Notes: generated by a model not told the origin, from the letters alone. DNA of 58,368 bases from Fibrobacterota bacterium (GCA_043753995.1 JAYUVP010000043.1:1-58368), one strand, 5' to 3'. Shown: positions 9,373 through 52,082, counted from the stretch's first letter. Program-made: numbers and translations.

Positions 9373-9451
9373 GAGAGACCCGTTGCCGAAAAGGTGAAGG
9401 AAGGTTCAAGTTTAGCAAAGTTGCACGGATTAAGCCGTGCTAACGCCCATT

Positions 9452-10206: not shown

Positions 10207-10213
10207 CACCCTT

Positions 10214-10242
10214 ACAGTAGCTACGGTAGCCACCAAAGTCAA
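10214..10242 (-). promoter_or_regulatory. Sigma70-like promoter with overlapping operator for the TA operon
   Basis: TTGACT-17nt-TACTGT; GTAGCTAC and GTAGCCAC repeats plus the GCTAC-g-GTAGC inverted repeat lie in the spacer/-10. Confidence 0.7.
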
Positions 10243-10260
10243 GTTGCCGTTATGGCGCCA

Positions 10261-12660: not shown

Positions 12661-12726
12661 GGGGTGGCATCCTCTGCGGCTGCGGAATGCCCGAAGCCAA
12701 GGCTAAAAGTTAGAGATTAAACCCAG

Positions 12727-15700
12727 CTACCAGGCCATGCGGCCCATGAGAACAATGCGCGTGGCGTCGATGCGCAATTCTGCCCTGGCGATTTCGTGCA
12801 ATACCGCCGAAGCGTGGGCCTCAGCAGCTTCAATTTCCGAAGGATTGACGGGAGCCCCAACAGCCTGCAAATCGCGCAAACGTTGCACTTCGCCGAGCAA
12901 TCGTTTTTCCGCCTCTTTATGAGCCTCTTTTTTGCGCGTCGACTCCATGAAACCCGCCTTGGTTTTGGCGGCTTCCAATAATTTGGGCATGAGTCGATCG
13001 AATTCTTGATGATGCTCTTCCAACAAGGTCGTCGGCGCGGGCTCTAAATCCGAAGCATCGAGGCGCGGCAGGAACTCAGTCAAATTGTCACCGGCATCAT
13101 CCACTAAAACGCGCAAAGGTGTTGGCGGCAAAAAGCGATCGACACGTAAATGCCCGGGTGCCGTGGCTTCGAGGAGAAAGACCGCCTCCAGGGCGACGCC
13201 TTTGCGGGGAGCCTCGGCCCAGCCTACAAAGCCCGTCTTGCCTTCCTGACCATCGAGAATCAAATCTACCGCGCCGCGCATGACGGGATGGTCCATGCTC
13301 ATGAAGGCCACGTCTTCATGAGATATGGCTTCGGAGCGATCGAAGGTGAGGGCCAAACCCAATTCCGGTACGCCCGGAAAGCTGTCCAAGGTCATACGTT
13401 CACCAGGGGTGATGAAATACCCGCGCTTCAGGGCAGTGTCTTCTATTTCCAAACCGAAGTGATCGAAAACGGTTTCGAGATGCCCTTCGAGTTCTTCGTC
13501 TTCATCCTCAGCCTTGATTTCGGCTATGAGCGCGCGCGCCATTTCCGGGCGTTGCGAATTGATTTCCAGCAGGCGATCGCGCCCTTGTTCCAAGGTGGCG
13601 CGCAATTCCGACGCGAGTCGGCGTGTGCTTTCGCATAAGTCTTGAATGGCTTGCGGCAATTCCGTTTGAACCTCCGCACCGTCCTCGCGCGCCTCGACGC
13701 TTAAAGCCAGTGAGCAGACTTTCAAAACCTCGCCGATTTGCCTTTCCTTGACATAGTCCGCGCCGAGTACGGTATCGCGAAAGGCACCCATGCCTTCGGC
13801 ATACCAGCGATACACCACTTCATGCACGGTTCCCCGCAAATACGGAAGGTGAATATGAATGTCCTGATTCTGGCCGATGCGATCGAGACGACCGATGCGC
13901 TGTTCCAGCACGCTGGGATCGAGAGGCAAATCGAACAGAACCAAATGATGCGAGAATTGGAAATTGCGCCCTTCGCTGCCGATTTCCGAGCAAAGCAAAA
14001 TTTGCGCGCCCGACGGATCCGCGAACCATGCGGCATTCCGATCGCGGGTGGTCATGGTCAGATTTTCATGAAAGACCGAGAAAGGCGTCGTAGTCAAGGT
14101 CGGCAATAATTCGCTGAGGGCGAAAATCACATTCTTATGCGAGGCGATCAAAAGGATTTTTTCGCCAGCCAATCGCTTCAGCAATTGAATCAACCAATCG
14201 ATACGTGGATCACGCCGCCAAGCCCGCCGCAGGAATTCTCCCGCATCTTCGGGGAAGCCCGGTAAATCCGAGGAGGTGAAAGCCGGCGCTCCGGCCAAGA
14301 GACGGGCCAGCTCCGCTTCACTCAATACCGATCTTTCCGCCATTTGCTGCGAAGCCTGCCCTGCGAGTTTTCGCGAGAAATACTGCGCGAGAGTCGCATG
14401 CTCTTCGTTCCCGTCCAGCGGCGCATCCACCACCACCCGGGGTGGAAAACCGCCTAAAGCCTGCCTGCGATTGCGGAACATCAGACGTCCGGTGCCATGC
14501 CGGTCGATGAGATCGTCCACCAAGGCTTTCCTGGCTTGGGCATTGCCCGAGAGATAGTCGGCAATGCGCGCTTGCAAGGCGGCATCGTCCGGAAAGGCCG
14601 CACGCAAAGCCGCCGCAACTTCGGCATCCGGTTTTTCGCCCGCTAAAAGTCGGTCAATCGTAGCGGCCAATTCTTGATAGCGGCCGGTCTCAGCGAGAAA
14701 GGCGTTGTAGTCGGAAAAGCGATCGGGATCGAGGAGCCGCAAGCGCGCGAAGTGCCCGGCCTGCCCCAACTGTATCGGGGTGGCGGTCAGCAATAAAACC
14801 CGCGAGGCCACCGCGGCAAGCTCTTCGATGGCTCGATATTCGGGTGAAACCCGTTCGGGACTCCAAGCCAGATGATGGGCTTCATCGACAATGAGCAAAT
14901 CAATGCCGGCGGTGATTGCCTGTTGAACACGACGCGGTGAATTCGCGAACAAATCAGTTTCGCAAAGAATGGTTTGCCTTTGCAAAAAGGGATTGCGGCT
15001 GGCGTCGCCTTTGTCGCCCTTTTCCTCGGCGCGGCATAAATCCTCGTCGACAACCGTGAACATGTGATTGAAGCGGCGAAACATTTCGACGAGCCATTGA
15101 TGCACGAGTTGGGTCGGCGTCACGATGAGCACGCGTGATATTTGACCGGCCACATAGAGACGATGGAAAATCAAGCCTGCTTCAATGGTCTTACCCAAAC
15201 CCACCTCGTCGGCCAATAAAACGCGGGGACGATGGCGCGAAGCAACTTCATGGGCAATGCCCATTTGATGCGGTAGCAATTGCAGACGCGCCCCGCAAAG
15301 ACCGCGCACGCGCGATCCCTGCATGGCCTCGCGCAATTTTTGGGTGCGATAGCGAAGGTTCCAAGCTTCGGGACCATCCACTTTGCCGGCCAAGAGCTGC
15401 TTGTCGGGATCGCTGAAGGCCATGCGATCGAGCAATTCGCCTTCGCCCAATTGCCGACCACCGCCGAAATAGGTGAATAGGCCGTCTTTTTCCGTGATGC
15501 GATCGACGACAAAGACTTGGCCTTCGCGGCCTCGGGCGCGATCCCCATTATGCAATCGTACCCGACGCAAGGGGGCATTGCGATGCATGTACACCCGCTC
15601 TTCCCCGACGGCGGGAAAGCTGATGCGCAAGTCGCGAAAGTTCACTTGTAGAATGAGGCCCAAGCCCAGCTCCGGCTCGGATTCGCTGACCCAGCGCTGC

Positions 15701-15768
15701 CCCGGCAAAAACCGGGGTGCGGCGGGAGGGGTGTGGCGAAAGCCGGGTCTTTGGGGAAGTTGGGACAT
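12727..15768 (-). CDS. rapA: RNA polymerase-associated SNF2 ATPase RapA
   Basis: GQRWVSESEPELGLG N-terminus, LLADEVGLGKTIE, DEAHH, SEIGSEGRNFQF, RapA C-terminal domain. Confidence 0.95.
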   Translation of the reverse strand: MSQLPQRPGFRHTPPAAPRFLPGQRWVSESEPELGLGLILQVNFRDLRISFPAVGEERVYMHRNAPLRRVRLHNGDRARGREGQVFVVDRITEKDGLFTYFGGGRQLGEGELLDRMAFSDPDKQLLAGKVDGPEAWNLRYRTQKLREAMQGSRVRGLCGARLQLLPHQMGIAHEVASRHRPRVLLADEVGLGKTIEAGLIFHRLYVAGQISRVLIVTPTQLVHQWLVEMFRRFNHMFTVVDEDLCRAEEKGDKGDASRNPFLQRQTILCETDLFANSPRRVQQAITAGIDLLIVDEAHHLAWSPERVSPEYRAIEELAAVASRVLLLTATPIQLGQAGHFARLRLLDPDRFSDYNAFLAETGRYQELAATIDRLLAGEKPDAEVAAALRAAFPDDAALQARIADYLSGNAQARKALVDDLIDRHGTGRLMFRNRRQALGGFPPRVVVDAPLDGNEEHATLAQYFSRKLAGQASQQMAERSVLSEAELARLLAGAPAFTSSDLPGFPEDAGEFLRRAWRRDPRIDWLIQLLKRLAGEKILLIASHKNVIFALSELLPTLTTTPFSVFHENLTMTTRDRNAAWFADPSGAQILLCSEIGSEGRNFQFSHHLVLFDLPLDPSVLEQRIGRLDRIGQNQDIHIHLPYLRGTVHEVVYRWYAEGMGAFRDTVLGADYVKERQIGEVLKVCSLALSVEAREDGAEVQTELPQAIQDLCESTRRLASELRATLEQGRDRLLEINSQRPEMARALIAEIKAEDEDEELEGHLETVFDHFGLEIEDTALKRGYFITPGERMTLDSFPGVPELGLALTFDRSEAISHEDVAFMSMDHPVMRGAVDLILDGQEGKTGFVGWAEAPRKGVALEAVFLLEATAPGHLRVDRFLPPTPLRVLVDDAGDNLTEFLPRLDASDLEPAPTTLLEEHHQEFDRLMPKLLEAAKTKAGFMESTRKKEAHKEAEKRLLGEVQRLRDLQAVGAPVNPSEIEAAEAHASAVLHEIARAELRIDATRIVLMGRMAW

Positions 15769-15796
15769 GCGATATTTCCTTGAGACCCGACGGAGT

Positions 15797-17389
15797 TCAG
15801 CGCTTTTGGCGCAAAGACAGATTCATGCCATTGAATAAAGCGCGCACATTGGCCTTGATGGTGTCCTTATCGACCCCACGTCCAATGACCACGGCACCCA
15901 AGGGCGCACCGTCCTTGCCGGAACGCTGCTGCAACTTGATTTCCGTGGCGGCATCGGCGGCGAATTCGGCGCGCTCGACATTGAGACCTACTTGCCGGTA
16001 TTCGACGAGGTGAAAATACAGGCCTATGGTCTCGACGGCTTTCACGCAGGCATCGATGGGTCCGGTGCCGGCGCCTTTGATTTGCATGCTTTTGCCCTGC
16101 CAGCGAATATCGAAACTGAACTCTTCCTCATGCGAAGTCATGCTCAGATCCAAGAATTCCAAAGGGCCGGCCACCTGCAAAATCTCGCGCTCATAGGCCT
16201 TCACGATGTCGGCATCATTGAGCTCGCCCTTGCCATTGCCTTCCGACATGGTTTTGAGCACGGGCTGCAAGGCTGCCGCTTCTTCCATGGAAATGGGCAA
16301 TCCCAAGTCGCGCACGATTTCAAATACCGCCGACTTGCCGCTTTGGCTGGTAAAGGCAAGACGATCGCTTTCCTTGCGGCCGATGAGGCCGCCATTGATG
16401 GCGCGATAAGCGCCTTTTTCCAAGCCCTTGGTCTTGGCTGCGCCGTCTTGGTGTATGCCGCTGCGATGCGCGACGACATCAAGGCCCACAAGAGGGGCCT
16501 TCTCGTACAAGGGCACTTGCGCCCACTCCGAAACCAATAAGGCCGATTCGTAAATGGCGTCCATGCGCAAAGGCACTTGCTCTTCGCAATTGTACAAGGC
16601 ACACGCCACCTCGTAGAGATTGGTATTGCCCGCGCGCTCGCCGAGGCCATTCATGGCGCATTCGAGTTGGGTCGCGCCCGCGAAATAGCTTTCCACCGTG
16701 GTCGCCGTGGCCATGCCCAAATCATTGTGGGTGTGGACGGCGATGGTGATGTGCTTGGGCAAAGCCTCGACCACCTGCCTCACCATGTCGACGAAAAGCA
16801 TGGGACGATAACGCTCCACGGTATTCGGCAAATTGATCACCGTAGCCCCCGCCTCAATGACGGCGTGAAACACTTCGATGACGAAATCCATATTGTCACG
16901 GCAATCGCCGAAATGTTCAGCGGAAAACTGTATGGTTCCCTTATTGCCCATGAGCTTGCGAATGAGAGCTACCGACTCCACGGCGCGCTGCTTCACTTGG
17001 GCGGGAGTCATGCGCAAGACATGCTCCATATTATGGCTGGAGGTGGTGATGAAGGTATGGATGCGCGGTTGGGCCGCTCCCTTCACTGCTTCCCAGGCGC
17101 GCTCGATGTCGCGCGGCACGGTACGGGCGAGGCTGCTGATGACCACATCATCGGGCGCCAACTTGGCGAGATGCACGCAAGCGGCGAAATCCATATCGCT
17201 CGCACCCGCGAAACCGATTTCAATGCCTTGCACGCCCAACTTGAGCAATTGCCTGAAGACGCGCTCTTTTTCTTCGAGATTCCATGGCTGGCGCAGGGCC
17301 TGATTGCCGTCGCGCAAGGTCACGTCATAAAAAAAAGGACGCCGCCCGCTTGAGGGCGTCTGGGATTTCATTTCGATTGGGGAAGCCAT
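15797..17389 (-). CDS. leuA: 2-isopropylmalate synthase
   Basis: DVTLRDGNQ, HTHNDLG, GLGERAGN, HRSGIHQDG, regulatory GTGPIDA; upstream Leu attenuator. Confidence 0.93.
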   Translation of the reverse strand: MASPIEMKSQTPSSGRRPFFYDVTLRDGNQALRQPWNLEEKERVFRQLLKLGVQGIEIGFAGASDMDFAACVHLAKLAPDDVVISSLARTVPRDIERAWEAVKGAAQPRIHTFITTSSHNMEHVLRMTPAQVKQRAVESVALIRKLMGNKGTIQFSAEHFGDCRDNMDFVIEVFHAVIEAGATVINLPNTVERYRPMLFVDMVRQVVEALPKHITIAVHTHNDLGMATATTVESYFAGATQLECAMNGLGERAGNTNLYEVACALYNCEEQVPLRMDAIYESALLVSEWAQVPLYEKAPLVGLDVVAHRSGIHQDGAAKTKGLEKGAYRAINGGLIGRKESDRLAFTSQSGKSAVFEIVRDLGLPISMEEAAALQPVLKTMSEGNGKGELNDADIVKAYEREILQVAGPLEFLDLSMTSHEEEFSFDIRWQGKSMQIKGAGTGPIDACVKAVETIGLYFHLVEYRQVGLNVERAEFAADAATEIKLQQRSGKDGAPLGAVVIGRGVDKDTIKANVRALFNGMNLSLRQKR

Positions 17390-42240: not shown

Positions 42241-44493
42241 GTGAAAGCTTCTCCAAACTCGGACCTAGGTCCGAATCCATCCTTGAATTCGCCATCAGCC
42301 CCGTCCTCGCAGGATGGGGCTTTTTCCGTTTCCTCGACTTGGCTCATTCGCTCGGTTGTGAAAACCGTCACCTTCCACAATGGCGACAATGGCTATAGCG
42401 TCCTCAAGGTGCAAGCCAGCGGAGCGGGTCAAGTCCAAACCATAGTGGGCACCTTTCCTCGTTTGACTCCAGGCGAAGTGCTTGACATCGAAGGCGAATG
42501 GGTCAAGCACGAGACTTTCGGCGAACAATTCAAGGCCACGAATTACCGAATTGTGCCACCGGATGGCCGTGAGGCCATGGAGCGTTATCTCGGCGGTGGT
42601 GCCATCAAGGGTCTGGGACCGGTTTTGGCCAAACGTCTGGTGGCGACTTTTGGCGACGACACTTTCAAGGTTTTGGATGAAGAGCCCGAACGCCTGGATG
42701 TCATACCGCAATTGCGTGGCCGTAAAAAGCAAAAGGTGCTGGCGGCATGGCGTGACAGTCGATCCTTGCGCGATGTTTTGCTTTTCTTGCAAGCGCATCA
42801 CCTGACTCTCGGACTGAGCCATCGCATCGTCAAGCATTATGGCGCGAACGCTCTCGAAGTCATCAAGCGCAATCCCTATCAATTGGCAGACGATGTTTGG
42901 GGCATTGGCTTTTTGAAGGCCGACGATGTGGGCCGCAAATTGGGTTTTCCTGCCGACAGCTATGAAAGACTGCGAGCCGGTTTGCTTTTCGCCTTGAATC
43001 GCGCCGGTGATGACGGGCATGTCTTTTTGCCGCGCGCCGATTTGCTGGCTAAGGCGGAAGAATTGCTTCACGCTCCTCAAGAGCGATTGATTTTCTCACT
43101 CGATAATTTGCGCGAAATCGAAGCCGTCAAGTTGGATGAAGCTGCCAATGTGTTTTTACCCTGGCTCTGGCATAGCGAACGCGGCATTGCGCGTCGCATG
43201 GCCTTGCTTTTAGGAACGCCAACGAAATTGCAGGTTTCTCTCGTCAGTGAAGCCATTGCGGCGGTAGAGAAGCGCGTTGGCAAAGGCTTTGTCTTCAGCG
43301 AAGAACAGCGCCAGGGCATACACCAAGCCGTGACTCAAGGCGCATTTTTACTCACCGGGGGTCCGGGCACCGGCAAAACCACCACGGTGCAAGGCATACT
43401 CGAAGCCCTGAAAAATGCTGGGCTGACCTTGGCGCTTTGCGCGCCGACGGGCCGGGCTGCCAAGCGCCTCTCCGAAGTGACGGGCGTACCCGCTTCGACC
43501 ATCCATCGATTGCTCAAATTCGATCCCAGCGCCGGCGGTTTTCAACTCGATGAAAAAACACCCTTAGCCGTGGACGCCCTCATTGTCGATGAGCTATCGA
43601 TGATAGACACGTCCTTGATGTTCAATCTGCTCAAGGCGATCAAACCGGGTACGCGCCTCATTCTCGTAGGCGATCCCGATCAATTGCCTTCGGTAGGCCC
43701 CGGCAAAGTTTTAGGCGAGCTCATCGCCAGCGGAGAAGTGCCTCATCTGCATCTCTCGAAAGTGTTTCGCCAAGCCCAGGCCTCGCGGATTATCGTCAAT
43801 GCCCATCGCATCAATCAGGGAGAGTCACCCGATGTCAGCGAAGGCGGAAATTTTCATTTCGTCGCCCGCGAAGAGAACGAGAATGTGCTGAAAGCGGCCG
43901 TGGAAATGGCCGCTGAGCGCTTGCCGCGCCGATTCGGCTACAATCCTCTGGGAGACGTGCAAGTACTCACACCCATGAATCAAGGCCCGCTTGGCACCTT
44001 GGCCTTGAATCAAGCCCTGCAAGACAAATTGAATCCTTCCAAGCGCGAGCTCTTGCATAAGGATCGCCGCTTTCGCTTGGGCGACAAAGTCATGCAGCTC
44101 AAAAACAATTATGATAAGAATGTCTTCAATGGCGATATCGGCCGTGTCAGCGGGCTATGGGTGCCTGAGCGTAAATTGACCGTCGATTTTGAAGGCGAAA
44201 CCGTGAACTATGAAGGCGAGGAGCTCGATCAATTGCAGCTGGCCTATGCGGTTTCGATTCACAAAAGCCAGGGCAGCGAATTCAAGGCCGTGGTCTTGGT
44301 TTTGGCCAAGGCCCACTATGTCATGCTGCAACGCAATTTGCTTTATACCGCCATCACCCGCGCGCGCGAACAATGCGTGGTGGTCGGCCAGTGGACCGCC
44401 ATCGGCCAATCAGTGCGCAATAATCCCGCAGTGAAACGCAATACGCTATTGGCTGAGGCCCTGAAGCAAGAAGGCCTGGGCTTCGCTTTTTAA
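42241..44493 (+). CDS. recD2: RecD2 (RecD/TraA-like) helicase; true start uncertain, possibly GTG 42358
   Basis: TFHNGDNGYSVLK, GIGFLKAD, GGPGTGKTT, APTGRAA, VGDPDQL, HKSQGSE, LLYTAITR. Confidence 0.93.
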   Translation: MKASPNSDLGPNPSLNSPSAPSSQDGAFSVSSTWLIRSVVKTVTFHNGDNGYSVLKVQASGAGQVQTIVGTFPRLTPGEVLDIEGEWVKHETFGEQFKATNYRIVPPDGREAMERYLGGGAIKGLGPVLAKRLVATFGDDTFKVLDEEPERLDVIPQLRGRKKQKVLAAWRDSRSLRDVLLFLQAHHLTLGLSHRIVKHYGANALEVIKRNPYQLADDVWGIGFLKADDVGRKLGFPADSYERLRAGLLFALNRAGDDGHVFLPRADLLAKAEELLHAPQERLIFSLDNLREIEAVKLDEAANVFLPWLWHSERGIARRMALLLGTPTKLQVSLVSEAIAAVEKRVGKGFVFSEEQRQGIHQAVTQGAFLLTGGPGTGKTTTVQGILEALKNAGLTLALCAPTGRAAKRLSEVTGVPASTIHRLLKFDPSAGGFQLDEKTPLAVDALIVDELSMIDTSLMFNLLKAIKPGTRLILVGDPDQLPSVGPGKVLGELIASGEVPHLHLSKVFRQAQASRIIVNAHRINQGESPDVSEGGNFHFVAREENENVLKAAVEMAAERLPRRFGYNPLGDVQVLTPMNQGPLGTLALNQALQDKLNPSKRELLHKDRRFRLGDKVMQLKNNYDKNVFNGDIGRVSGLWVPERKLTVDFEGETVNYEGEELDQLQLAYAVSIHKSQGSEFKAVVLVLAKAHYVMLQRNLLYTAITRAREQCVVVGQWTAIGQSVRNNPAVKRNTLLAEALKQEGLGFAF
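42297..42325 (+). terminator. Intrinsic terminator-like hairpin in front of the recD2 homologous region
   Basis: AGCCCCGTCCT-cgc-AGGATGGGGCT followed by TTTT. Confidence 0.7.
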
Positions 44494-44512
44494 TAGCTGG
44501 GTCTGGCTGGGA

Positions 44513-44914
44513 TTAAATCGACTCCAGCCACTTCAGCCCATCCTCGGGATTGGTGAAAAGTTTCACGGTCAAACCGGCCTTTGCATATTCTTCTGAATGC
44601 CGTTTTACCGTCAACTGGCCGACGATTTTCTCGGGAAGCACTAGCGCCCAATACTTCCAACCGACCTTCATCATGCGCGCAAACCAATCTTCCTTGGCCC
44701 ACTTTTCCACTTCGGTAGGGAGGGCGCCATTGTTGCGATCGTCGGAAAGCCACTTGACCGATTTTTGGAGCTTGGTGGTTTCATAACCCTTGTCCAAGAG
44801 TGCCTTGAAATCGTCACCCTTGATCCACTTCTTGATTTTATGATGGACAATTTTCTTTTCGGTATGAAACCACAAGGATGAAAATTCATTGTCGAGAAGC
44901 ATATTCGCCGGCAT
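44513..44914 (-). CDS. Hypothetical STAS/SEC14 (SpoIIAA-like) domain protein
   Basis: KWLSDDR...DWF..GWKYWALV...F.....LKWL pattern; SD GGGAGAGG before ATG 44914. Confidence 0.7.
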   Translation of the reverse strand: MPANMLLDNEFSSLWFHTEKKIVHHKIKKWIKGDDFKALLDKGYETTKLQKSVKWLSDDRNNGALPTEVEKWAKEDWFARMMKVGWKYWALVLPEKIVGQLTVKRHSEEYAKAGLTVKLFTNPEDGLKWLESI

Positions 44915-45059
44915 GAAAAAACCTCTCCCATCCCTGAGCCAGAACAGGCTCATTTCTGTCGATTTTATCCCGGGACGCCGGTTAAGTCAATCTGGAGAAA
45001 CCGTATTGTTACCATTTTGCACATATTGCAGGGCAGCTCAACTACCTAAAACCGCGGCT

Positions 45060-46805
45060 ATGGCAAACAGACTTTCTGGCTTCGAATCCCCCGGCGATGC
45101 GGATTTGCAAAAAATCCTGGGACCTTTTTATTCCAGCCTCAATCTTTCGGCTCAGACTCTTCCTTTAGGCACGCCTCAAATAACCGAGACGAAAAAAGCC
45201 GTAGGTGGAGGTGCCGGTGGAAAAGCAAAACCTGGAAAGCCCAATTCAACCGCTGAGAGCCAATCGAAGATCGATAAAGAATTCGAAGCACCGGAAACGC
45301 CTCTCGAAAAGGTGGCCGATCCCGAACCTCCGAAAAAAGAAAAGGTGATTTTGAGCAATCCCCAATGGGGCATGCCCAAACCCGGGTTCAATGAAGAGAC
45401 ACCCATTTCGGTCGATGTTTTTCTGCCCAAAGAGAATGCCATTAAAACCAGGGTCACCTTCGAACTTTTCGCCAAAACTCCGAAAGGAGAGGAGCGGATT
45501 TGTAGCGGAGAAGCACATGCCAAAGAGGGCAAGGCCACTTGTTCGATTCCGGTTTATATCCCGGCTTACAAGGATGAAAACGGCAAGCGGCTGCAAAAGG
45601 TGGAGTATTTCTTCATCGCTAAGCATTCCGAAGCCGAGCCCCTAGATGGTTCGAAAGCGCCTAAAATGGTCGATGAGATGGCCGAGCGGGTGCTGGAAAC
45701 ACACATTATTCAGAATGTCACATTCGTCACGGGAAAAAGTTTTATTCGCGCCTCCGAGGCTACCGACCTGAAGGCTTTGGGGCAAGCCGTGAAGGATTGG
45801 AAGGGAAAACATCCCGATGGCAAGCTGGCAGTATTCGGCCATGCCGATGCGGTCGGAGAGGAGTTGAGTAATAAGTCCTTGTCCGAGCGGCGAGCGAAGT
45901 CTATTCATGCCTACCTGGCAAAAGATCCCAAGCCCTGGGAGGAGCTTTATGGCGAGGAGAAGTGGGGCTTAGCGAGTGTTCAGGAATTGCTGAAGCATTT
46001 GGGGCATGATCCTGGAACCATCGACGGCCAGGATGGCCCCAAGACGCAAGGGGCGGTGAAGGACTTTCAAGGAAAGAAGGGATTGGGGGCAACGGGCAGC
46101 GCGGATGCGAAGACGCGGGAGGCGCTGTTCCTGGCTTACTTCGAAGGCGCAGGGTCGCCCAGCAGTACGGCGAAAGATTTTGATGCCATTGACGGCAAGG
46201 CCTTCACGGGTTGCAGCGAATTCAATTTGATTGAGAACGCGCAAGGGGCATGCGAAACGAATCGACGCGTCGCGGTTTTGCTCTTGAAGGTGAGCAAGAA
46301 CTTTCCCATCGAGTATCCGTGTAAGCAGGGAGCGATTCAGCCTTGTCAAAGCCAGGCCGGGCTAAAGGGTGAGCGAAGGACGCCAGGGTTTCGGTGCAAG
46401 TTTTACGACGAGTTGGTGGTGGAAGGGAAGGGCAAGAAAAACGAAAACGGCGAACTTCCCGACTACGATCCTGGAACCGCCCCGGCATCTGATCCGGGAT
46501 GCGGAGGCGAATACGCTACCCCAGGAGCTCCAGGGTCGGCCCGTCGGCTGGAAATCGTCGTCCACACGGACAATGATACAGAGGACGACCAGGCCTTTGA
46601 GTTCCACCTGAACTCGACAAGTTCCTCGTATACGGGTGTCTGCAAAATCACCGTCCCCAAGGGAGCGGGACCGGGAGAGACTCGCATCGCCTTTGACGAT
46701 GCCCCTTCCGGAGAATCCTTCCGCCTCGAAGCTGCGATACAAAGCAAGGAACCGTATCTGGTGGCCGACGACTGGGCGCCCGAAGCAGGAGCTTCGCATG
46801 CGTGA
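45060..46805 (+). CDS. OmpA-C-like protein with nested peptidoglycan-binding domain; no signal peptide
   Basis: FGHADAVG...NKSLSERRA and NRRV flank VQELLKHLGHDPGTIDGQDGPKTQGAVKDFQ; start ATG 45060. Confidence 0.85.
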   Translation: MANRLSGFESPGDADLQKILGPFYSSLNLSAQTLPLGTPQITETKKAVGGGAGGKAKPGKPNSTAESQSKIDKEFEAPETPLEKVADPEPPKKEKVILSNPQWGMPKPGFNEETPISVDVFLPKENAIKTRVTFELFAKTPKGEERICSGEAHAKEGKATCSIPVYIPAYKDENGKRLQKVEYFFIAKHSEAEPLDGSKAPKMVDEMAERVLETHIIQNVTFVTGKSFIRASEATDLKALGQAVKDWKGKHPDGKLAVFGHADAVGEELSNKSLSERRAKSIHAYLAKDPKPWEELYGEEKWGLASVQELLKHLGHDPGTIDGQDGPKTQGAVKDFQGKKGLGATGSADAKTREALFLAYFEGAGSPSSTAKDFDAIDGKAFTGCSEFNLIENAQGACETNRRVAVLLLKVSKNFPIEYPCKQGAIQPCQSQAGLKGERRTPGFRCKFYDELVVEGKGKKNENGELPDYDPGTAPASDPGCGGEYATPGAPGSARRLEIVVHTDNDTEDDQAFEFHLNSTSSSYTGVCKITVPKGAGPGETRIAFDDAPSGESFRLEAAIQSKEPYLVADDWAPEAGASHA

Positions 46806-48168
46806 CTTCCCTTATACGGTTAAGGCCGGCGACTCCTTCTCCAAGATTGCCCGCCTCCGCTACGGAGCCGAAAAAGCGTTTCTGTCGCTGGCCTCCTACA
46901 ATAAGATTGACCCCAAGTCGACGCTTTCCGTTGGACAGAAACTAAAACTCCCCGAGACCCTTCTTTACAACGACGTGGACGTTCCCAGCAATTCGGTGGT
47001 GGTCCGGCAGGCCAATGTGATTCTGCCCGAGGTTGCCGAGCATATAGCTGGGCCGACCACCATCAAGATCGGGGATAAGGCGGAATACGCCATTGATCGG
47101 TTCAAGGCCGGAGCGACCGACGACGACAAAGCCAATTCCGGTTGGAAGATTGAGGTCTTCTTCAAAGACGGCACCAAGAAGGAAACCTTGGAGCCAGAGA
47201 AGACTAAGCCTTCCTTCGTCACCAACACCCCGTCCAAATTGACAATCGACAAAGTGCCTGGATCTTGGGCAAACGGTTCGTTTCAAGTCTTCCCCGTGGT
47301 TCGCAAGGCCGATACTGCGGTCTCCGTCAAGACAAGCGTGACCATGAAGCCGGTAGAATTGTCTCGCTCCAAGCAGCGGCCTGGGCACTTCTCACGCACG
47401 TCGGGTAGCTTCACCGATGTCGCGGACGATATGACGGTCAGCGATTACACTGTGGCCCGGTACAAGAGGATCAACCTCTTCACCGCCGCTGACGACTTAC
47501 CGGCGATTCCCTCCATTCCGACCCCATTCGGTCCGACGCCAGCCCGAGCCGAAGGACTGCTACTTCGTACCGACACCGAACTCTTCGATGAGATGGAGTT
47601 CATGTGCACCACTTACTTCTCCACAAGCCCCTTGCAAGCCGTTGTGCTATCGATCATCCGCAAATTCAAGGACAAAGGTCCTATCCGGGCCGGGGCCCAG
47701 AATACCAGGGCCGATGCCTTCACCGATCCGGTGCTGACCAAGGCGGCGCTAGACCACCACTCGATGAAGGATTTCATTGCCAAGGCGAAAGAGCAGTCAG
47801 TCGACGCTATCCGAATAGCGAATCTTGACCCATTGGATGTAAAGCCTTTTACCATCTCACCTCAACCACTCTTCCACGACACTGCGGACATCATCAACGG
47901 GCTGACCATCACCATCAACGACACCTGGGCTTACGACGTAGACTTGATCGACTACCAACTTCTGGACGCCAAGAAATTTAAGGGAAAGATCCGTATCACG
48001 GTATACGACCACTTCGGCCTCGACCAGCCCGACCTGGACGCCAACCTCTTCAAGCCATTCGGTGTAGTCGACGGCTTCCGCGCCTGGTTCATACTTGAGC
48101 ATCTTCGCGGCTACATACCCTTCTGGACAGTCATAGAAACCGAAGCGGAGATCGAGGGGAGTCTGTGA
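46798..48168 (+). CDS. LysM + DUF3289-like C-terminal domain protein (putative toxin/effector)
   Basis: YTVKAGDSFSKIA...LSVGQKLKLP LysM; GLTITINDTWAY...YDHFGLD...GFRAWFILEH..GY.PF; ATG 46798 with SD AGGAG. Confidence 0.8.
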   Translation: MRDFPYTVKAGDSFSKIARLRYGAEKAFLSLASYNKIDPKSTLSVGQKLKLPETLLYNDVDVPSNSVVVRQANVILPEVAEHIAGPTTIKIGDKAEYAIDRFKAGATDDDKANSGWKIEVFFKDGTKKETLEPEKTKPSFVTNTPSKLTIDKVPGSWANGSFQVFPVVRKADTAVSVKTSVTMKPVELSRSKQRPGHFSRTSGSFTDVADDMTVSDYTVARYKRINLFTAADDLPAIPSIPTPFGPTPARAEGLLLRTDTELFDEMEFMCTTYFSTSPLQAVVLSIIRKFKDKGPIRAGAQNTRADAFTDPVLTKAALDHHSMKDFIAKAKEQSVDAIRIANLDPLDVKPFTISPQPLFHDTADIINGLTITINDTWAYDVDLIDYQLLDAKKFKGKIRITVYDHFGLDQPDLDANLFKPFGVVDGFRAWFILEHLRGYIPFWTVIETEAEIEGSL

Positions 48169-48650
48169 TGTACTATCCATTTTGGATTTTCTTAGGAATT
48201 TTCGTGGTGGCTTGCACCTCGACGTCTACCGAATTCCACAAATTGCAGATCCACGATAGTGATATGGTCCACGGAGAGAGCGAACCCCATGTGATCATGC
48301 GCGAATCCTATGTCGTCTCGAATATTCCGACCGAAATGGATTCACTTGTCCATCAATCCTTAGTGCTCGCGAAATCAAAATCGTGGAGTTCCCCGACCAC
48401 AACCTTCTGGTTCTACTTCGATTTCTACAGGGAAACCTCCTTTACACCTCGAAATTTCGTGGAGACCAGTGATCGAGCCGAGAAGATCCGATTCCATGGC
48501 TCCGATTATCTGCTTGGAATCGTCCATGGTCGTTCCAAACTTCGCGACTGCTGGTTCGTCCATGTCAGGGGACGCGAAGGCCAGTCTCCCCTCGACACCT
48601 GCGTTGACCTAGCATCACCGTCTCGCGATTCCGCGCGGGTAGCACCTTGA
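48168..48650 (+). CDS. Lipoprotein, putative cognate immunity protein
   Basis: TGATG stop/start overlap with the toxin; lipobox VVAC. Confidence 0.75.
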   Translation: MYYPFWIFLGIFVVACTSTSTEFHKLQIHDSDMVHGESEPHVIMRESYVVSNIPTEMDSLVHQSLVLAKSKSWSSPTTTFWFYFDFYRETSFTPRNFVETSDRAEKIRFHGSDYLLGIVHGRSKLRDCWFVHVRGREGQSPLDTCVDLASPSRDSARVAP

Positions 48651-48778
48651 ATTCGTTTTGCCTTTTCTTTGGCGCCATCGGGGGCTTCCGCGCTTGGTTC
48701 ATTCTGCAGCATCTGAGGGGATATCTCCCTTTCTGGACCTTTATTGAAACAGAAGCCGATATTGAGGGCTCACTTTAA
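48647..48778 (+). pseudogene. Orphan fragment of the DUF3289-like toxin C-terminus
   Basis: FGAIGGFRAWFILQHLRGYLPFWTFIETEADIEGSL* matches the last 36 aa of 46798-48168 at 29/36 positions. Confidence 0.92.
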
Positions 48779-49251
48779 TGAGATGGCTGGTCCTGCTTGC
48801 CATTCTTGTCGTGGCGTCTCGCTCTAAGCAGCCGCTTGAGTTTCACAAACTTGATATTCCACCCGACAAGTTCGCTGAATCCGATCCGAAATCCCCGACG
48901 CTCCAAGAATTCTATGTGGTTTCCCATCCGCCTCAGTCGATGGATACCCTGGCGCGCATGGCAATTTCCTTCTGCCGAAAACTGGAACCTTCGCGTCCAG
49001 AGAGCACGTTCTGGATAGGCCGGGCCTTTCTGAAAGTAACGCGCCGGACTCCGCGTGACTTCGTAGAGAAGGAAGAGGACGGAGGCTCAATCCAGACTCA
49101 TGGGGACGACTGGATCTTAGACATCACGCACGGCAGGACGATAGTTCGTGACTGTTGGTTCGTAAATATCAAAGGACGCGAAGGCCCATCCCCCCTTGAC
49201 ACCTGCATCGACCTGACGACGCCCACCGACATCGCTCCGGAGAAGCCATGA
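48778..49251 (+). CDS. Paralogous (orphan) immunity candidate
   Basis: Shares EFHKL, YVVS, TPR.FVE, HG.D, RDCWFV..GREG.SPLDTC.DL with 48168-48650; TAATG overlap with the fragment. Confidence 0.8.
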   Translation: MRWLVLLAILVVASRSKQPLEFHKLDIPPDKFAESDPKSPTLQEFYVVSHPPQSMDTLARMAISFCRKLEPSRPESTFWIGRAFLKVTRRTPRDFVEKEEDGGSIQTHGDDWILDITHGRTIVRDCWFVNIKGREGPSPLDTCIDLTTPTDIAPEKP

Positions 49252-50273
49252 GCAATTACTGGGAAGACGCTTCGCTGAACCTGCACTTCACCTCCAAGGA
49301 CGATTGCAGCCTGGACACCACGGCCGCAGCCAAGTACAAGGTGAAAGCCAATGTGCCGGAAACCTTCGTCACCGACATGCAAAAGGACCTGATCGTCTTG
49401 GGCTACCTGGCCGACAAGGACGGCAATAAGGACGGCTACTTCGGGGGCGGCACCAAGCGTGCGGTGGGACGTTTTCAGCGCCATGCCTTGCGCGCCTTCC
49501 GGATGCTGGCCGACAAGACCCGCGTGGATCTCGCCGCCGCCGACCTTTGGAAAGGCACCGAGACAGGCGCGGTGGACCCAAGCACAGCCAAAGAAATCCG
49601 CCGCTGGATAGACAAGAAATGGACTATCCCCGTGGGCGTGGTGAAGCTCGTGGCTGTGGCCCAAGGCGGGAAAATGCGCGAGGACGCCCAAAAGGCTTGG
49701 GAGGCCATAGTCAAGAGCGTGACCGATGCTGGCGGGACGCTGGAAGGCCCTTATGGCGACACCCTGCGAGGACTGGCCAAGACATCCAAGTCTGGGACCA
49801 GTTCCTATAGCTTCCACTACTGCGGACGCGCCGTGGACATCAATCAAGCCTTTTACGGGAAGCGCTATTTCGCTAAGAAGGATGTGGTGGGAACGGACAC
49901 ATTCTGGAACCTGTACTGCAAGACCGACAAGCAGGACGGAACCCAGGGGACCGAGCACAAAAAAGGCGCGTTCAAATATTTCGTGTTCTGGAACGAGACG
50001 GATGCCGACCTCCCCGCCGGCCACTACATCGACCTGACCGCCATGATACAGGCCTCCGGCGATTTCTCCAGGATCAAAGCCCAATCGGGTTGGGATGATT
50101 CGGCGAAAGAAAAATCGGCGCGCTACAACAAAACCGAGTGGTGGCATTTCTACTTCGCCAAAGATGTGCAGAAGACTTTCCAGGACGAACTCGAATTGAT
50201 CGGATTCGGCGAGCAGGCGATTCGTGACAAGGGATGGGCCACGGATACGGAACTCGACAATGCCCCGGGCTGA
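49248..50273 (+). CDS. PG-binding domain + M15-type Zn peptidase (cell-wall hydrolase effector candidate); no signal peptide
   Basis: QKDLIVLGY...DGYFGGGTKRAVGRFQ; SFHYCGRAVD (SxHxxGxAxD); EWWH. Confidence 0.82.
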   Translation: MSNYWEDASLNLHFTSKDDCSLDTTAAAKYKVKANVPETFVTDMQKDLIVLGYLADKDGNKDGYFGGGTKRAVGRFQRHALRAFRMLADKTRVDLAAADLWKGTETGAVDPSTAKEIRRWIDKKWTIPVGVVKLVAVAQGGKMREDAQKAWEAIVKSVTDAGGTLEGPYGDTLRGLAKTSKSGTSSYSFHYCGRAVDINQAFYGKRYFAKKDVVGTDTFWNLYCKTDKQDGTQGTEHKKGAFKYFVFWNETDADLPAGHYIDLTAMIQASGDFSRIKAQSGWDDSAKEKSARYNKTEWWHFYFAKDVQKTFQDELELIGFGEQAIRDKGWATDTELDNAPG

Positions 50274-51273
50274 AACGATTTTCCGCGCCGCAACGGTGGC
50301 CTTCGCCCTTTTCGGCGCTTCATTCGCCGCCGATTCACTCCTGACTTTTCGCGGCCCGGCGAATCACCCTTTCCTGAATCTGGATGCGGCAGGACACCTG
50401 CGCCTGGGACTGGATGGCCTAGTCGATTCGGTCCGGCTCCGTGCCAAGCCTGTGGGCTCTTCCGTGCTGGCCTTCGCCTGCACCGGCGACACTTTGAAAG
50501 CTTTCCAAGGGATTCCAGAGGAAGGAAAAGATCCGGACTCGGTGAGCGTCGCCGGTCCCTGCGACTTCCAAGGGTTTACGGGCCGCTTGGCCCCTGCCAG
50601 TTTGTATGACTTCATGCTCTTCGGCGACAAAGCCACTCTTCCCTGGGTGCGACTGCGAGTTGGGGAGCGTTCGGTCTTCGCGCCCATTCCTTCCCTCCGC
50701 TTACGCCGCGTCGCGACGGATTCCATTCGCTTTCGAAATTCGATTGTGATCCGAGTACCGTTTCTTCTTCCATTACTCGGAGGTCCCCTGGATGCCGACT
50801 CCAAGGCGACCTGTTTTCGAGTGGTGGACGGGTCTCCCCGTCGTGAGGCCGCGAAGGCCGATTCAGTTGCGGGATGGAATTGGTCGGCAGTAGCCGATCT
50901 GGGAGGAAATCGCCTGCGTATTGATTCTCGAAACCTGCCGCATGGGCAAACGGCTTGGTATGCCGCGCTAGGACGCGCCCAGGCGGTGCTTGTCTTCGAA
51001 GACATCTACCGGCGAGAGCCCCGCAAGGTGGCAACTTTCCGCACGGCTTCAGGAAAGCGCTACATGACCTTGGAAATCTCCACCCTCTTTGGGCATGGCG
51101 TATGGACCGACCTCTGGACTGTGGGGCCGGATACAGCTTGGACAACCCGAATAGGGGCCGTCGATGGAGAATCGGGTGAGAATTGGCAAGGCACCTGGAA
51201 CCTCGACCGTAAGCACGGGACCATCACAGCACGAGTCCCGGGGAAGAAGCGCAGCTTGTTCCGGGCACCCTAG
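50260..51273 (+). CDS. Secreted hypothetical protein (candidate immunity for the peptidase)
   Basis: Sec signal MPRAETIFRAATVAFALFGASFA; 14-nt overlap with the upstream gene. Confidence 0.6.
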   Translation: MPRAETIFRAATVAFALFGASFAADSLLTFRGPANHPFLNLDAAGHLRLGLDGLVDSVRLRAKPVGSSVLAFACTGDTLKAFQGIPEEGKDPDSVSVAGPCDFQGFTGRLAPASLYDFMLFGDKATLPWVRLRVGERSVFAPIPSLRLRRVATDSIRFRNSIVIRVPFLLPLLGGPLDADSKATCFRVVDGSPRREAAKADSVAGWNWSAVADLGGNRLRIDSRNLPHGQTAWYAALGRAQAVLVFEDIYRREPRKVATFRTASGKRYMTLEISTLFGHGVWTDLWTVGPDTAWTTRIGAVDGESGENWQGTWNLDRKHGTITARVPGKKRSLFRAP

Positions 51274-51347
51274 ATGAAGATGCCAGTCCCGTCCTCCTAC
51301 AGTTGATACGGCGCATTGAGCGCGCCCCGCCCACTTTCAGGAAGCCT

Positions 51348-52082
51348 CTAAGGCAAAACCCCGCCGAGAATTTTGCGCTGCAAATCGTGATAGAAGCGGC
51401 AGCCCTTTTCGCCCATGTCTAAAAGTCCATTGAGCTGGGAACGCGAAAACACCGACTCTTCGCCCGTGCCTTGCAATTCGACGAAGTCGCCGCTATCGGT
51501 CATGACCACATTCAAATCGACGGCGGCATCGGCGTCTTCGACATAACACAAGTCGAGCAACGTTTCGCTTTCGACCATGCCTACGCTCACGGCGGCGAGA
51601 TAATGCTTGAGTATGGGCTTGGGAAAAACCGCCGCCGGGTGGCTGGCCTTGAGTTTTTGCAGGACGCGCGCCAAGGCGAGAAAGCCGCCCACTACGCTGG
51701 CCGTGCGCGTGCCACCATCGGCTTCAATCACATCGCAGTCAATCATGATTTGCCGCTCCCCGAGGGCTTGCATATCACAAACGCCGCGCAGGGCGCGACC
51801 AATGAGACGCTGAATTTCCTGGGTGCGGCCCGTGGCGCCATTGCGCTCGCGCTTCACGCGTTGGGGGCTGCTCTTGGGCAGCATATTGTATTCCGCCGTC
51901 ACCCAACCCGCGCCTTTGCCCTTCATCCAACGGGGGACTTCTTCATCAAGCGAAGCGCAGCAAAGCACGCGCGTGCGTCCGACTTCGAGGAAAAAAGAGG
52001 CATCCGCGCTTTTCACGAAATCTTCGGTGATTTTCACTTCGCGCATTTGATCGGCCGCACGGCCATCGATTCGACGTGTCAT
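51348..52082 (-). CDS. rph: Ribonuclease PH
   Basis: GWVTAEYNMLP, EIQRLIGR, ADGGTRTA, ELQGTGE. Confidence 0.97.
   Translation of the reverse strand: MTRRIDGRAADQMREVKITEDFVKSADASFFLEVGRTRVLCCASLDEEVPRWMKGKGAGWVTAEYNMLPKSSPQRVKRERNGATGRTQEIQRLIGRALRGVCDMQALGERQIMIDCDVIEADGGTRTASVVGGFLALARVLQKLKASHPAAVFPKPILKHYLAAVSVGMVESETLLDLCYVEDADAAVDLNVVMTDSGDFVELQGTGEESVFSRSQLNGLLDMGEKGCRFYHDLQRKILGGVLP

Follow-up and report, generated by a model that had tools for sequence, protein, structure and literature searches.

An orphan T6SS effector-immunity island, as predicted from its gene content, in the recD2/rph gap of a probable Fibrobacterota genome

Introduction

MIX, FIX, PIX and WHIX are marker domains of polymorphic T6SS effectors, and some of them also occur in secreted adaptors. 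In such classes, as described for RIX, a conserved N-terminal region is combined with a wide range of unrelated C-terminal toxins, whose cognate genes lie downstream, and short toxin-less versions are encoded upstream of separate cargo effectors (PMC10435454).

The closest described toxins to those considered here are the DUF3289 proteins, which were reported to be toxic in the E. coli periplasm, to resemble colicin M and to be neutralised by the product of the downstream gene (Geller et al. 2024, PMC11148199). A DUF3289 protein of Aeromonas jandaei is a T6SS-dependent antibacterial effector with a small immunity gene downstream; the immunity protein of this pair is a 95-aa membrane protein that does not belong to DUF943 (PMC12135965). 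In the Rhs/CdiA-type displacement of C-terminal toxins, as outlined in the cited part of Zhang et al. (2012, PMC3482391), the 3′ end of a toxin gene, diverged and lacking a start codon, stands directly before a paralogous immunity-like gene.

Here we analyze a block of six genes and one gene fragment in a 58,368-nt stretch of DNA (the window). From its gene content and relatives, the block is probably an orphan (auxiliary) T6SS effector-immunity island, acquired horizontally in the recD2/rph gap.

Results

Gene layout and signal-like N-termini

The block is flanked by recD2 (42241-44493, plus strand, identified by Pfam) and by a putative rph gene on the minus strand (51348-52082), whose name was given by the first-pass annotation without a family search. 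Matches to the putative Rph protein, at 54-71% identity, are present in 24 of the 25 genomes compared, its own included. An ORF of 146 aa and unknown family lies on the minus strand between recD2 and the first gene of the block (44513-44953); it had no match in Pfam, NCBIfam or PHROG searches and was not found in the recD2-rph gaps of seven relatives. All genes of the block, g1 to g6, lie on the plus strand. Reading of the junctions showed that g1 and g2 overlap by 8 nt, that TGATG is common to g2 and g3, TAATG to the gene fragment and g4, and ATGA to g4 and g5, and that g5 and g6 overlap by 14 nt. The ORF calls and these junctions confirmed the first-pass description of six co-oriented, overlapping genes plus a stub between recD2 and rph, the latter remaining a putative assignment.

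Signal-like segments were called from Kyte-Doolittle hydrophobicity, in a 12-residue window over the first 41 aa, together with reading of the sequence, and not by SignalP. The maxima for g1, g2 and g5 were 0.79, 0.42 and -0.10, respectively, with no signal-like segment, while those for g3, g4 and g6 were signal-like (2.72, 2.85 and 2.02). Together with the Pfam matches given below, these values bear out two earlier claims: that three proteins carry PG-binding modules without a signal-like N-terminus, and that the genes following the effector candidates encode lipoprotein or signal-peptide proteins.

g2 is a candidate DUF3289 effector followed by a candidate immunity gene

The g2 protein (46798-48168, 456 aa) consists of a LysM domain (residues 6-52, E = 1.6e-7), a middle region and a DUF3289 domain (PF11692, residues 262-454, E = 1.5e-17, 64.5 bits against a cut-off of 25). 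It also matches the NCBIfam model TIGR03034, and a profile of its family matched the PDB 'DUF3289 family protein' (9jg8/9jdi) with an E value of 7.6e-66. By analogy with the published proteins, g2 is a candidate periplasm-acting, colicin-M-like effector.

The g3 gene that follows (48165-48650, 161 aa) encodes a protein with a lipobox-like VVAC at its N-terminus, and most relatives in the family alignment have a Cys lipobox. The family is rare, with 11 representative matches in 1.84 billion proteins. Neither g3 nor g4 had a match in Pfam (E <= 0.01), NCBIfam or PHROG, and by Pfam neither belongs to DUF943, the published immunity family. The gene after g2 is g3-like in each of the three distinct loci, namely the window, locus L108 and contig C171 of genome G285, of which locus L109 is a copy. 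The position and predicted export of this small lipoprotein-like protein make it a candidate immunity partner for g2.

The pair resembles both T6EC1/T6IC1 (Geller et al. 2024, PMC11148199) and the A. jandaei orphan (PMC12135965) in its C-terminal DUF3289 domain without a signal peptide, in the small exported protein encoded downstream, and in its orphan position outside the T6SS cluster of a genome that has a T6SS. It differs from these pairs, as presented in the cited parts of the two papers, by the N-terminal LysM domain of g2 and by a partner that is a lipoprotein of about 160 aa from a rare family, neither a DUF943 protein nor a 95-aa membrane protein. Furthermore, the g2 gene is overlapped by a preceding OmpA/PGB gene, and the host is probably a member of the Fibrobacterota rather than the Proteobacteria.

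A toxin stub and a second immunity-like gene

A toxin-gene fragment downstream of g3 (the stub, 48665-48778, plus strand) corresponds to the last ~37 codons and stop codon of a g2-type toxin gene and has no start codon. By tblastn, its identity to g2 is 80.6% over the final 36 aa; over g2 residues 420-456 it is 78%, and the two share a DNA repeat (D1, 76% over 91 nt). The adjoining g4 gene (48778-49251, 157 aa) is a paralogue of g3 (44% identity; repeat D2, 81% over 70 nt), and its product has a signal-like N-terminus with no lipobox Cys. We consider g4 a candidate for the orphaned immunity gene of the stub. The first-pass annotation had pointed to an orphan toxin stub as a hallmark of polymorphic toxin systems, and the tblastn match and sequence repeats support the stub and g4 as a displaced toxin end with a candidate orphan immunity gene. 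The arrangement is like that of Rhs/CdiA-type displacement as given in the cited part of Zhang et al. (2012, PMC3482391), except that the stub is only ~37 codons long and that neither Rhs/CdiA repeats nor a recombinase were seen.

g1 belongs to a polymorphic OmpA/PGB family

The first gene, g1 (45060-46805, 581 aa), encodes a protein with Pfam matches to OmpA (6e-8) and PG_binding_1 (3.8e-14). A short N-terminal motif and disordered linker (residues 1-87) are followed by an Ig-like β-sandwich (97-205), an OmpA-like domain into which PG_binding_1 is inserted (211-455), a disordered linker holding the motif LPDYDPG (458-493) and a small β-sandwich tail (494-572). In the AlphaFold model (mean pLDDT 75.3), the OmpA-like and PGB parts are of high confidence and have invariant residues, and the ~80-aa tail is of moderate confidence. 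Foldseek matched only Ig/macroglobulin-like domains and the PG-binding domain of OprF, with no enzyme-like match for the tail.

In most of 106 relatives, similarity to g1 stops at residue ~455-458. Clustering of the tails with 60 aa or more, 91 in total, gave 22 groups. A Tle1-like T6SS lipase tail was found in 5 of the 57 long members scanned, and related tails have related downstream ORFs in five pairs of loci. This covariation of tail and downstream gene does not extend to g1 itself, downstream of which stands g2. Judged by these comparisons, g1 is a member of an undescribed polymorphic effector family with a fixed N-terminal region and swappable tails. The likeness to RIX-type classes has a limit, in that the N-terminal region of the g1 family has ~380 structured residues, made up of the Ig-like sandwich and an OmpA-like domain with inserted PG_binding_1, and would thus be a PG binder itself.

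Short members of such families are found next to separate toxins. On another contig of the same genome (C342), an OmpA/PGB protein of 321 aa is encoded just ahead of a PT-TG toxin gene, with the two genes overlapping, and short g1-like proteins precede g5 homologues in genomes G277 and G085. The g1 tail precedes g2 in each of the three loci with visible upstream sequence (the window, L108 and G285), a linkage that may reflect recent common descent rather than function, since these loci represent only two lineages. With its small β-sandwich tail that stays linked to g2, g1 may be a carrier or adaptor for g2.

It is possible, though rather unlikely, that g1 is itself a complete effector, either a non-catalytic toxin binding PG or its precursors or one with an unrecognised toxin in its tail, and that g2 is an independent second effector. 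All other members of the family that we read carry their toxin in cis, OmpA domains have been proposed as possible toxins (Tox-OmpA; Zhang et al. 2012, PMC3482391), and the confidently modeled OmpA-like and PGB parts with their invariant residues also fit this explanation. However, there is no apparent immunity gene after g1, where the overlapping gene is g2, the tail has no enzyme-like match, and separate effectors repeatedly have a short g1-like protein encoded just before them. In addition to the earlier proposal of an OmpA/PGB carrier or adaptor, the protein is not a one-off and has its own polymorphic family; the carrier role of g1 itself is one that we infer.

A T6SS is encoded elsewhere in the genome

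The block had been described as having no visible delivery machine. This did not hold in a whole-genome search: contig C278 encodes TssM, TssA, TssB, TssC, Hcp, TssE, TssF and TssG, contig C346 encodes TssK and TssL, and the genome has three VgrG, PAAR proteins on contigs C200 and C90 and a PAAR-like protein on C163. The cassette, on contig C43, does not adjoin vgrG, hcp or PAAR genes, and Pfam detected no known loading domain (Hcp, VgrG, PAAR, MIX-type or another) in g1, g2 or g5.

The link to the T6SS comes instead from the g1 family. Two relatives encoded in a single Fibrobacteria MAG (L026 and L027) have an Hcp + OmpA + PGB architecture, with Hcp scores of 27.0 and 26.0 bits against a cut-off of 23.5; g1 itself has no Hcp domain by Pfam. 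More distant OmpA/PGB proteins adjoin VgrG and/or PAAR, at loci L041, L042 and L043 and on contig C200 of the same genome. Genes of the g1 family occur in 20 of 296 phylum genomes, all 20 of which have TssC, compared to 115 of 296 overall (19 of 19 without genome G021, which is flagged unpublished), a co-occurrence confounded by phylogeny: nearly all g1-positive genomes belong to one family, to which full-length matches in the 296 genomes are also almost wholly confined, and whose T6SS-negative genomes all fall in one small-genome genus.

The T6SS is not the sole contractile route, since contig C170 encodes an eCIS sheath, a gp19-like tube, Pvc16_N, an AAA ATPase, two eCIS_core proteins, CIS_tube, a spike OB domain and baseplate J. 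We consider it improbable that this contractile eCIS exports the cassette proteins. PVC-type toxins with OmpA domains have been described (Zhang et al. 2012, PMC3482391), but in the cited account the OmpA domain lies at the extreme C-terminus, whereas that of g1 is N-terminal. The cassette and the eCIS genes are on different contigs, although cargo may be encoded elsewhere. The Hcp fusions and vgrG/PAAR neighbourhoods of the g1 family point to a T6SS rather than an eCIS, as does the demonstration that DUF3289 secretion is T6SS-dependent (PMC12135965).

g5 is a candidate peptidoglycan-stem-cleaving effector

The g5 protein (49248-50273, 341 aa) has PG_binding_1 (1.1e-9; residues 1-126) and a C-terminal domain (130-310) in which structure comparison pointed to a possible divergent LAS (VanY/LdcB/Ply500-like) zinc peptidase fold. 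Residues H190, D197, E297 and H300 do not vary among 40 sequences and fit the LAS pattern H-x6-D...E-x-x-H, of which we take H-x6-D and the distal H to be the zinc ligands. No curated Pfam or NCBIfam peptidase model matched, PG_binding_1 being the only hit. Thus, the M15 peptidase named in the first-pass annotation is not called by Pfam, while a LAS/VanY-like domain is suggested by the invariant motifs and the possible fold. From sequence and model, g5 is a candidate peptidoglycan-stem-cleaving effector. Its family occurs in 6 of 296 phylum genomes, all six TssC-positive.

The last gene, g6 (50260-51273), encodes 337 aa from the ATG at 50260, in an ORF that opens at a GTG at 50224, and had no match in Pfam, NCBIfam or PHROG. 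A secreted protein or lipoprotein follows g5 in 4 of 4 loci read. A homologue of g6 (39% identity) occupies this place in G285, and g6 has weak C-terminal similarity to the lipoproteins after the g5 homologues in G085 and G277. We suggest g6, a predicted signal-peptide protein, as a candidate immunity partner for g5.

The pattern, and possibly the LAS fold, is shared with TagX and the LAS peptidases VanY, LdcB and Ply500, but g5 has an N-terminal PG_binding_1, no membrane anchor, a position outside the T6SS cluster and no Pfam M15/VanY match. An effector role suits it better than one in assembly, given its place outside that cluster and the secreted partner encoded after it. There is little chance that the block is an envelope module of the producer itself, serving PG anchoring or remodelling or providing TagL- or TagX-like helpers for passage of the T6SS through the wall, with non-classical export. 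T6SS assembly requires TagX, an L,D-endopeptidase of the VanY superfamily (PMC5061870), and some T6SS include OmpA-like PG anchors; the match of g1 to the TssL long-form model TIGR03350, at 20.7 bits, is far under the cut-off of 139.8. However, TagX has transmembrane segments and a T6SS cluster position, whereas g5 has no hydrophobic segment in its first 41 aa and lies in an island. In addition, g2 was not found in 40 relatives, most of which have a T6SS, and a toxin stub, paralogous secreted genes and polymorphic tails are not features of housekeeping genes.

The cassette is sporadically distributed

Besides the lack of a g2 match in these relatives, the number of g3-like genes differs among the loci where the cassette recurs, and gene content is therefore not invariant. 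The recD2-rph gap spans 6.9 kb here versus 0.56-3.5 kb, with unrelated genes, in seven relatives. The cassette recurs in G285, a genome of another family, with a g5 protein that is 86% identical, compared to 54% for the putative Rph of that family. Locus L109 is identical to contig C171 of G285, and L108 is 87-92% identical to it. On this distribution, the cassette is accessory, sporadic and horizontally moved.

No prophage context was found, in line with the first-pass reading. A remnant of a phage lysis cassette, made of endolysin-like PG-binding enzymes and accessory proteins, is scarcely credible: PHROGs endolysin families match g1, g2 and g5, and the Ply500 and LysB4 endolysins are structural neighbours of g5, but the PHROG matches are confined to PG_binding_1 or LysM parts, no tRNA at 38-56 kb and no att-like flanking repeats were seen, the flanks are recD2 and the putative rph, and no holin or phage structural gene was seen among the ORFs of the block.

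Discussion

The reading of the block as an envelope-targeting interbacterial effector-immunity cassette is supported by the DUF3289 domain, by the stub with its paralogous secreted gene and by the contractile system encoded elsewhere in the genome. In the scheme we favour, in which we infer the secretion route, toxicity, immunity pairing and carrier role, g1, g2 and g5 would be signal-less cytoplasmic proteins that the T6SS, whose genes lie on other contigs, takes up as cargo and injects into the periplasm of adjacent Gram-negative cells. The conserved N-terminal region of the g1 family would be the part for loading and retention, and a role for g1 as carrier or adaptor for g2 is favoured over the less likely non-catalytic PG-binding toxin.

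Once delivered, the proteins would be held on the target sacculus by their OmpA-like, PG_binding_1 and LysM modules. The DUF3289 domain of g2 would attack cell-wall synthesis in a colicin-M-like manner, probably at lipid II, and the predicted LAS peptidase of g5 would cleave peptide stems of peptidoglycan. Sister cells would be protected by exported partners, the g3 lipoprotein against g2 and g6 against g5, while g4 and the stub may be what is left of an older g2 allele that recombination has displaced. If this is true, the organism would fire cell-wall toxins, for which it carries the antidotes, at neighbouring cells via a T6SS encoded elsewhere in its genome.

Genes between recD2 and rph

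The recD2 gene (42241-44493, plus strand, assigned by Pfam) and a putative rph (51348-52082, minus strand, named as in the first-pass annotation) converge on a region containing one minus-strand ORF of 146 amino acids (44513-44953, between recD2 and g1), six plus-strand genes (g1-g6) and one gene fragment. The junctions are as first described: g1 and g2 overlap by 8 nt, g2/g3 meet at TGATG, the fragment and g4 at TAATG and g4/g5 at ATGA, while the g5/g6 overlap is 14 nt, measured from the ATG at 50260. The GC content of the block (0.49-0.59) shows no sharp contrast with its flanks. Scans of 44400-51500 for promoter-like (4 vs. 3.0±1.3 expected) and terminator-like sites (7 vs. 8.9±3.2 expected) were uninformative.

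Pfam recognizes OmpA (residues 221-288) and PG_binding_1 (306-356) domains in g1 (45060-46805), LysM (6-52) and DUF3289 (262-454) in g2 (46798-48168) and PG_binding_1 (40-79) in g5 (49248-50273); it gave no match for g3, g4, g6 or the 146-aa ORF, which belongs to no known family. A simple hydrophobicity measure reproduced the reported distribution of export signals: g3, g4 and g6 each have a distinct signal-like segment, and g1, g2 and g5 have none. The block resembles polymorphic toxin loci and known orphan effector-immunity islands of type VI secretion systems (T6SS), and would work as they do; its interpretation as an effector-immunity cassette stands. All that is said below on secretion, toxicity, immunity or a carrier role is inferred from the sequences, the predicted structures and the genomic neighbourhood.

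g1 belongs to a polymorphic family of candidate effectors

What this analysis chiefly adds to the first reading is the placing of g1 in a polymorphic family of candidate effectors. It has 106 homologues, of which the named ones all carry a Fibrobacteres or Fibrobacterota label, except for a few distant matches in Planctomycetota. Total lengths range from 325 to 985 aa, and in most homologues similarity to g1 ends at residue ~455-458. Clustering of the 91 tails that reach 60 aa or more gave 22 groups. Among 57 long members scanned, five carry a Tle1-like T6SS lipase domain in the tail and one gave a marginal M6 peptidase match, the remaining tails having no known family. Related tails pair with related downstream ORFs in five locus pairs, and at one locus (G015) there is an additional downstream gene of the type found at a different locus.

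In the structural model of g1, residues 1-87 are disordered, 97-205 form an Ig-like sandwich (pLDDT > 90) and 211-455 an OmpA-like domain into which PG_binding_1 is inserted; a disordered linker, residues 458-493, then leads to a small β-sandwich (494-572, pLDDT ~70-78). Foldseek with the whole model returned generic Ig/macroglobulin-like domains and the OprF peptidoglycan-binding domain, and nothing else. We found no description of the family in the open-access papers searched on T6SS effectors, on OmpA with PG_binding_1 or on type VI secretion in Fibrobacterota/Fibrobacter (for Fibrobacter, among the papers listed, judged by title and opening of the abstract), nor any paper there combining T6SS, effector, PG_binding_1 and OmpA. 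Zhang et al. 2012 (PMC3482391) mention PG_binding_1 and LysM as adhesion modules and OmpA as a C-terminal toxin, an arrangement that differs from the peptidoglycan-binding N-terminal region and at least 22 tail types of the g1 family.

The closest homologue of the g1 core in the genomes compared (76% over residues 73-459) is a 960-aa ORF of G015 (contig C65). It is followed by three consecutive genes of ~320-340 aa, one of them matching the downstream gene of another locus (L029) at 42%; the trio looks like a candidate immunity array with an orphan member (whole locus, L111:3889-9949).

Short conserved N-terminal peptides precede a Gly/Lys/Pro-rich disordered linker (g1 residues 1-25, window 45060-45130); they were read in the window, in homologues P0002-P0091, at L117:775-1437 and on contigs C269 and C93 of the same genome. 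One form, MNxDPF, occurs in 43/107 family members; another, F-x-x-P-G-x-D-x-L, is shared by the g1 subgroup, the paralogues of the same genome and a 220-aa g1-like protein of G277. These peptides are possible loading signals. A further motif, LPDY(D/N)PG, lies at the core-tail junction of 5/107 members (g1 residues 466-472, window 46455-46475) and also at the C-terminal end of the short g1-like proteins of G277, and twice in that of G085 (L116, L117). It is reminiscent of the DPxG demarcation motifs of Rhs toxins, and could be a processing or docking site.

Links of the g1 family to type VI secretion

Two proteins of one Fibrobacteria MAG carry an Hcp domain N-terminal to the g1-like region (27.0 and 26.0 bits vs. 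a cut-off of 23.5). More distant OmpA/PG_binding_1 proteins adjoin VgrG and PAAR in an Ignavibacteria MAG, VgrG in a Phycisphaerae MAG, PAAR-CHAP in a Fibrobacteria MAG and, in a Bryobacteraceae MAG, a lipase with a Tli4-type immunity gene. In the genome of the window itself, a 1769-aa OmpA/PG_binding_1-subtilase protein is encoded within a vgrG-DUF2169-PAAR operon on contig C200, and further g1 paralogues occur on C269, C93 and C342. A g1-family gene (E <= 1e-25) was detected in 20 of the 296 phylum genomes sampled, including G021, which is flagged as unpublished; TssC is present in 20/20 of these vs. 115/296 overall. Since 19 of the 20 come from a single family, shared descent confounds this association.

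The C200 locus (432-16984) consists of a vgrG-DUF2169-PAAR (599 aa)-ankyrin operon followed by five small ORFs without known family, and ends with the subtilase protein and an 885-aa PG_binding_1 protein; it is probably a large T6SS cargo set. Separately, a fusion of a TOTE conflict-system AEP primase with a ResIII/DEAD helicase (C1:643-3018; PF22548, E 1e-96) has as its neighbour, at the edge of the contig, a fragment resembling g1 residues 49-193.

Of the T6SS components searched for, the genome (5.2 Mb, 356 contigs, 97% complete) encodes TssM, TssA, TssB, TssC, Hcp, TssE, TssF and TssG on C278 and TssK and TssL on C346. Two of its three VgrG proteins have DUF2169 adaptors and PAAR or PAAR-like proteins as neighbours, and C90 encodes another PAAR protein. 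It also encodes a complete-looking extracellular contractile injection system (eCIS; C170:1-18058), with sheath, gp19-type tube, Pvc16_N, AAA ATPase, two eCIS_core (DUF4157) proteins, CIS_tube, spike OB domain and baseplate J. The earlier remark that no delivery machine is visible therefore holds for the window only, two contractile systems being available elsewhere in the genome.

A DUF3289 effector candidate and a probable displaced toxin end

The C-terminal domain of g2 has direct precedents. In E. coli, DUF3289 was toxic in the periplasm and cells rounded up; it has a colicin M-like structure, and the downstream gene rescued the cells (Geller et al. 2024, PMC11148199). According to a 2025 study (PMC12135965), both the secretion of an orphan DUF3289 protein in Aeromonas jandaei and the killing by it go through the T6SS, and a small downstream gene provides immunity. 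The label "unknown function" for DUF3289 is outdated. A profile of the g2 family matched PDB chains 9jg8 and 9jdi, named 'DUF3289 family protein' (E 7.6e-66), over profile positions 78-404 and therefore takes in the middle region of g2 too; we found no paper on these entries in the open-access literature, and the middle region (56-250) had no usable match in the ESM Atlas.

The following gene, g3 (48165-48650), has a lipobox-like VVAC and is one of a very small group of lipoproteins ~145-168 aa long (11 matches among 1.84 billion representatives), most of its few relatives also having a lipobox. Because this immunity candidate differs, the block falls outside the strict DUF3289/DUF943 pair family. 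Complex prediction, run on the g2-g3 pair (g2 245-456 with g3 22-161, both as alignments), scored 0.01 vs. a mark of 0.32, which speaks neither for nor against the pairing. Among close g2 homologues the most variable segment is the N-terminal half of DUF3289 (246-350; 46-81% identity vs. 75-96% for the LysM part), which would fit, as weak evidence, co-diversification with the fast-evolving g3.

The start-less fragment (48665-48778) upstream of g4 (48778-49251) matches the final 36 residues of g2 at 80.6% identity (76% over 91 nt at the DNA level), and g4 is a g3 paralogue (44% identity). This arrangement is what recombination classically leaves behind when it displaces the 3′ end of a toxin gene, here together with a candidate orphan immunity gene.

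g5 as a candidate LAS peptidase

The 146 full-length homologues of g5 are annotated solely as peptidoglycan-binding or hypothetical proteins. The columns invariant in an alignment of 40 sequences (S188, H190, G193, R194, A195, D197, E297, W298, W299 and H300) reproduce the zinc/catalytic pattern of VanY-type enzymes, and we therefore read g5 as a candidate divergent peptidase of the LAS (VanY/LdcB/Ply500-like) group. No curated peptidase model, those of M15 included, matches g5. A model built with 40 homologues reached a pLDDT of 96 and gave no Foldseek match at E <= 0.001; the single sequence found nothing in the PDB, and the profile found weak Hedgehog matches only (E ~0.09-0.5), besides those to the PG_binding_1 region. 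In two relatives, g5-family genes (G005:C26, G005:C89 and G008:C25; L118-L123) are split matches of two pieces each, which suggests frameshifted or decaying copies.

The downstream gene, g6 (50260-51273), has no known family and only unnamed clusters in the ESM Atlas (top score 0.84). A 39% identical homologue follows g5 in G285, and the lipoproteins after g5 homologues in G085 and G277 show weak C-terminal similarity to g6 only (E 0.003 and 8e-8 between pairs).

Could g1 serve as a carrier?

The g1 tail is shared with a single protein among the 106 homologues (P0002; 77% identity, full length). No immunity-like gene follows g1, g2 standing in that place. In each of the three loci whose DNA upstream of g2 could be read, g2 comes after the end of a g1-type tail; these are the window, L108 (only the final 19 residues) and G285:C171 (96 residues, 68%). 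It should be noted that L108 is 87-92% identical to G285:C171 and that another locus, L109, is the same DNA, so the g1-g2 linkage is seen in two lineages only.

Elsewhere in the phylum, two g5 homologues have a short g1-like protein directly upstream (220 aa, the Ig-like part; 373 aa, the OmpA/PG_binding_1 part) and a lipoprotein downstream, and on C342 the gene for a 321-aa OmpA/PG_binding_1 protein overlaps a 611-aa PT-TG toxin gene by 4 nt. Such split forms resemble the secreted adaptors reported for RIX (PMC10435454). No fusion of g1 with g2 or g5 was seen, as no tail among the 106 homologues (proteins of up to 1017 aa) resembles either.

We tentatively propose, as an idea that we ourselves consider rather unlikely, that the N-terminal region of the g1 family is a new T6SS effector module acting both in cis and in trans. 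The module would consist of an MNxDPF or FxxPGxDxL peptide, a disordered linker, the Ig-like sandwich and the OmpA-like domain with inserted PG_binding_1, and would serve both to load proteins onto the secretion machine and to hold them on the cell wall of the victim. In cis, it would be fused to at least 22 toxin types; in trans, it might act as a secreted carrier for separate signal-less wall-binding effectors, for example LysM-DUF3289 g2 and the PG_binding_1-LAS family of g5.

Probable horizontal transfer of the cassette

Seven relatives also have recD2 and the putative rph side by side in convergent orientation; there the gap is either 0.56-0.93 kb, with a family-less ORF of ~190 aa, or 3.3-3.5 kb, with GH81 or GSDH/CBM genes; nothing in these gaps is similar to the window's genes. 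The 146-aa ORF likewise has no counterpart there, nor in the cassette copies of L108 and G285. A search of 40 relatives from the same family, order and class did not find g2. G285, a genome of another family whose putative Rph is 54% identical, has all parts of the cassette (g1 tail, g2, g3-like, g5 and g6, with protein identities of 68, 68, 42, 86 and 39%, respectively), which indicates that the cassette moved by horizontal transfer. There are two g3-like genes in L108 and one in G285. Among the Logan proteins, P0002 and P0236 come from contigs of one and the same length (18,645), as do P0110 and P0230 (13,722), a hint of additional copies of the cassette. No tRNA was found at 38-56 kb, and neither an integrase-like feature nor flanking direct repeats at the island edges were seen.

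Implications

For annotation, we suggest a practical rule: where a genome with a T6SS encodes a signal-less protein with OmpA, PG_binding_1 or LysM modules and the next gene is for a lipoprotein, the two should be taken as a candidate effector-immunity pair. The split forms, in which a short g1-like gene precedes a separately encoded effector, make the idea of a secreted adaptor open to testing. To our knowledge, T6SS effector biology comes almost wholly from Proteobacteria and Bacteroidota; here a third, little-studied phylum appears with its own candidate effector class of at least 22 tail types, most without known family. The g1 family is a ready catalogue of candidate cell-envelope toxins and candidate immunity genes. 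Unusually, the part that all members of the class share is predicted to be a peptidoglycan binder, which suggests retention at the target wall as a design principle for effectors that act in the periplasm.
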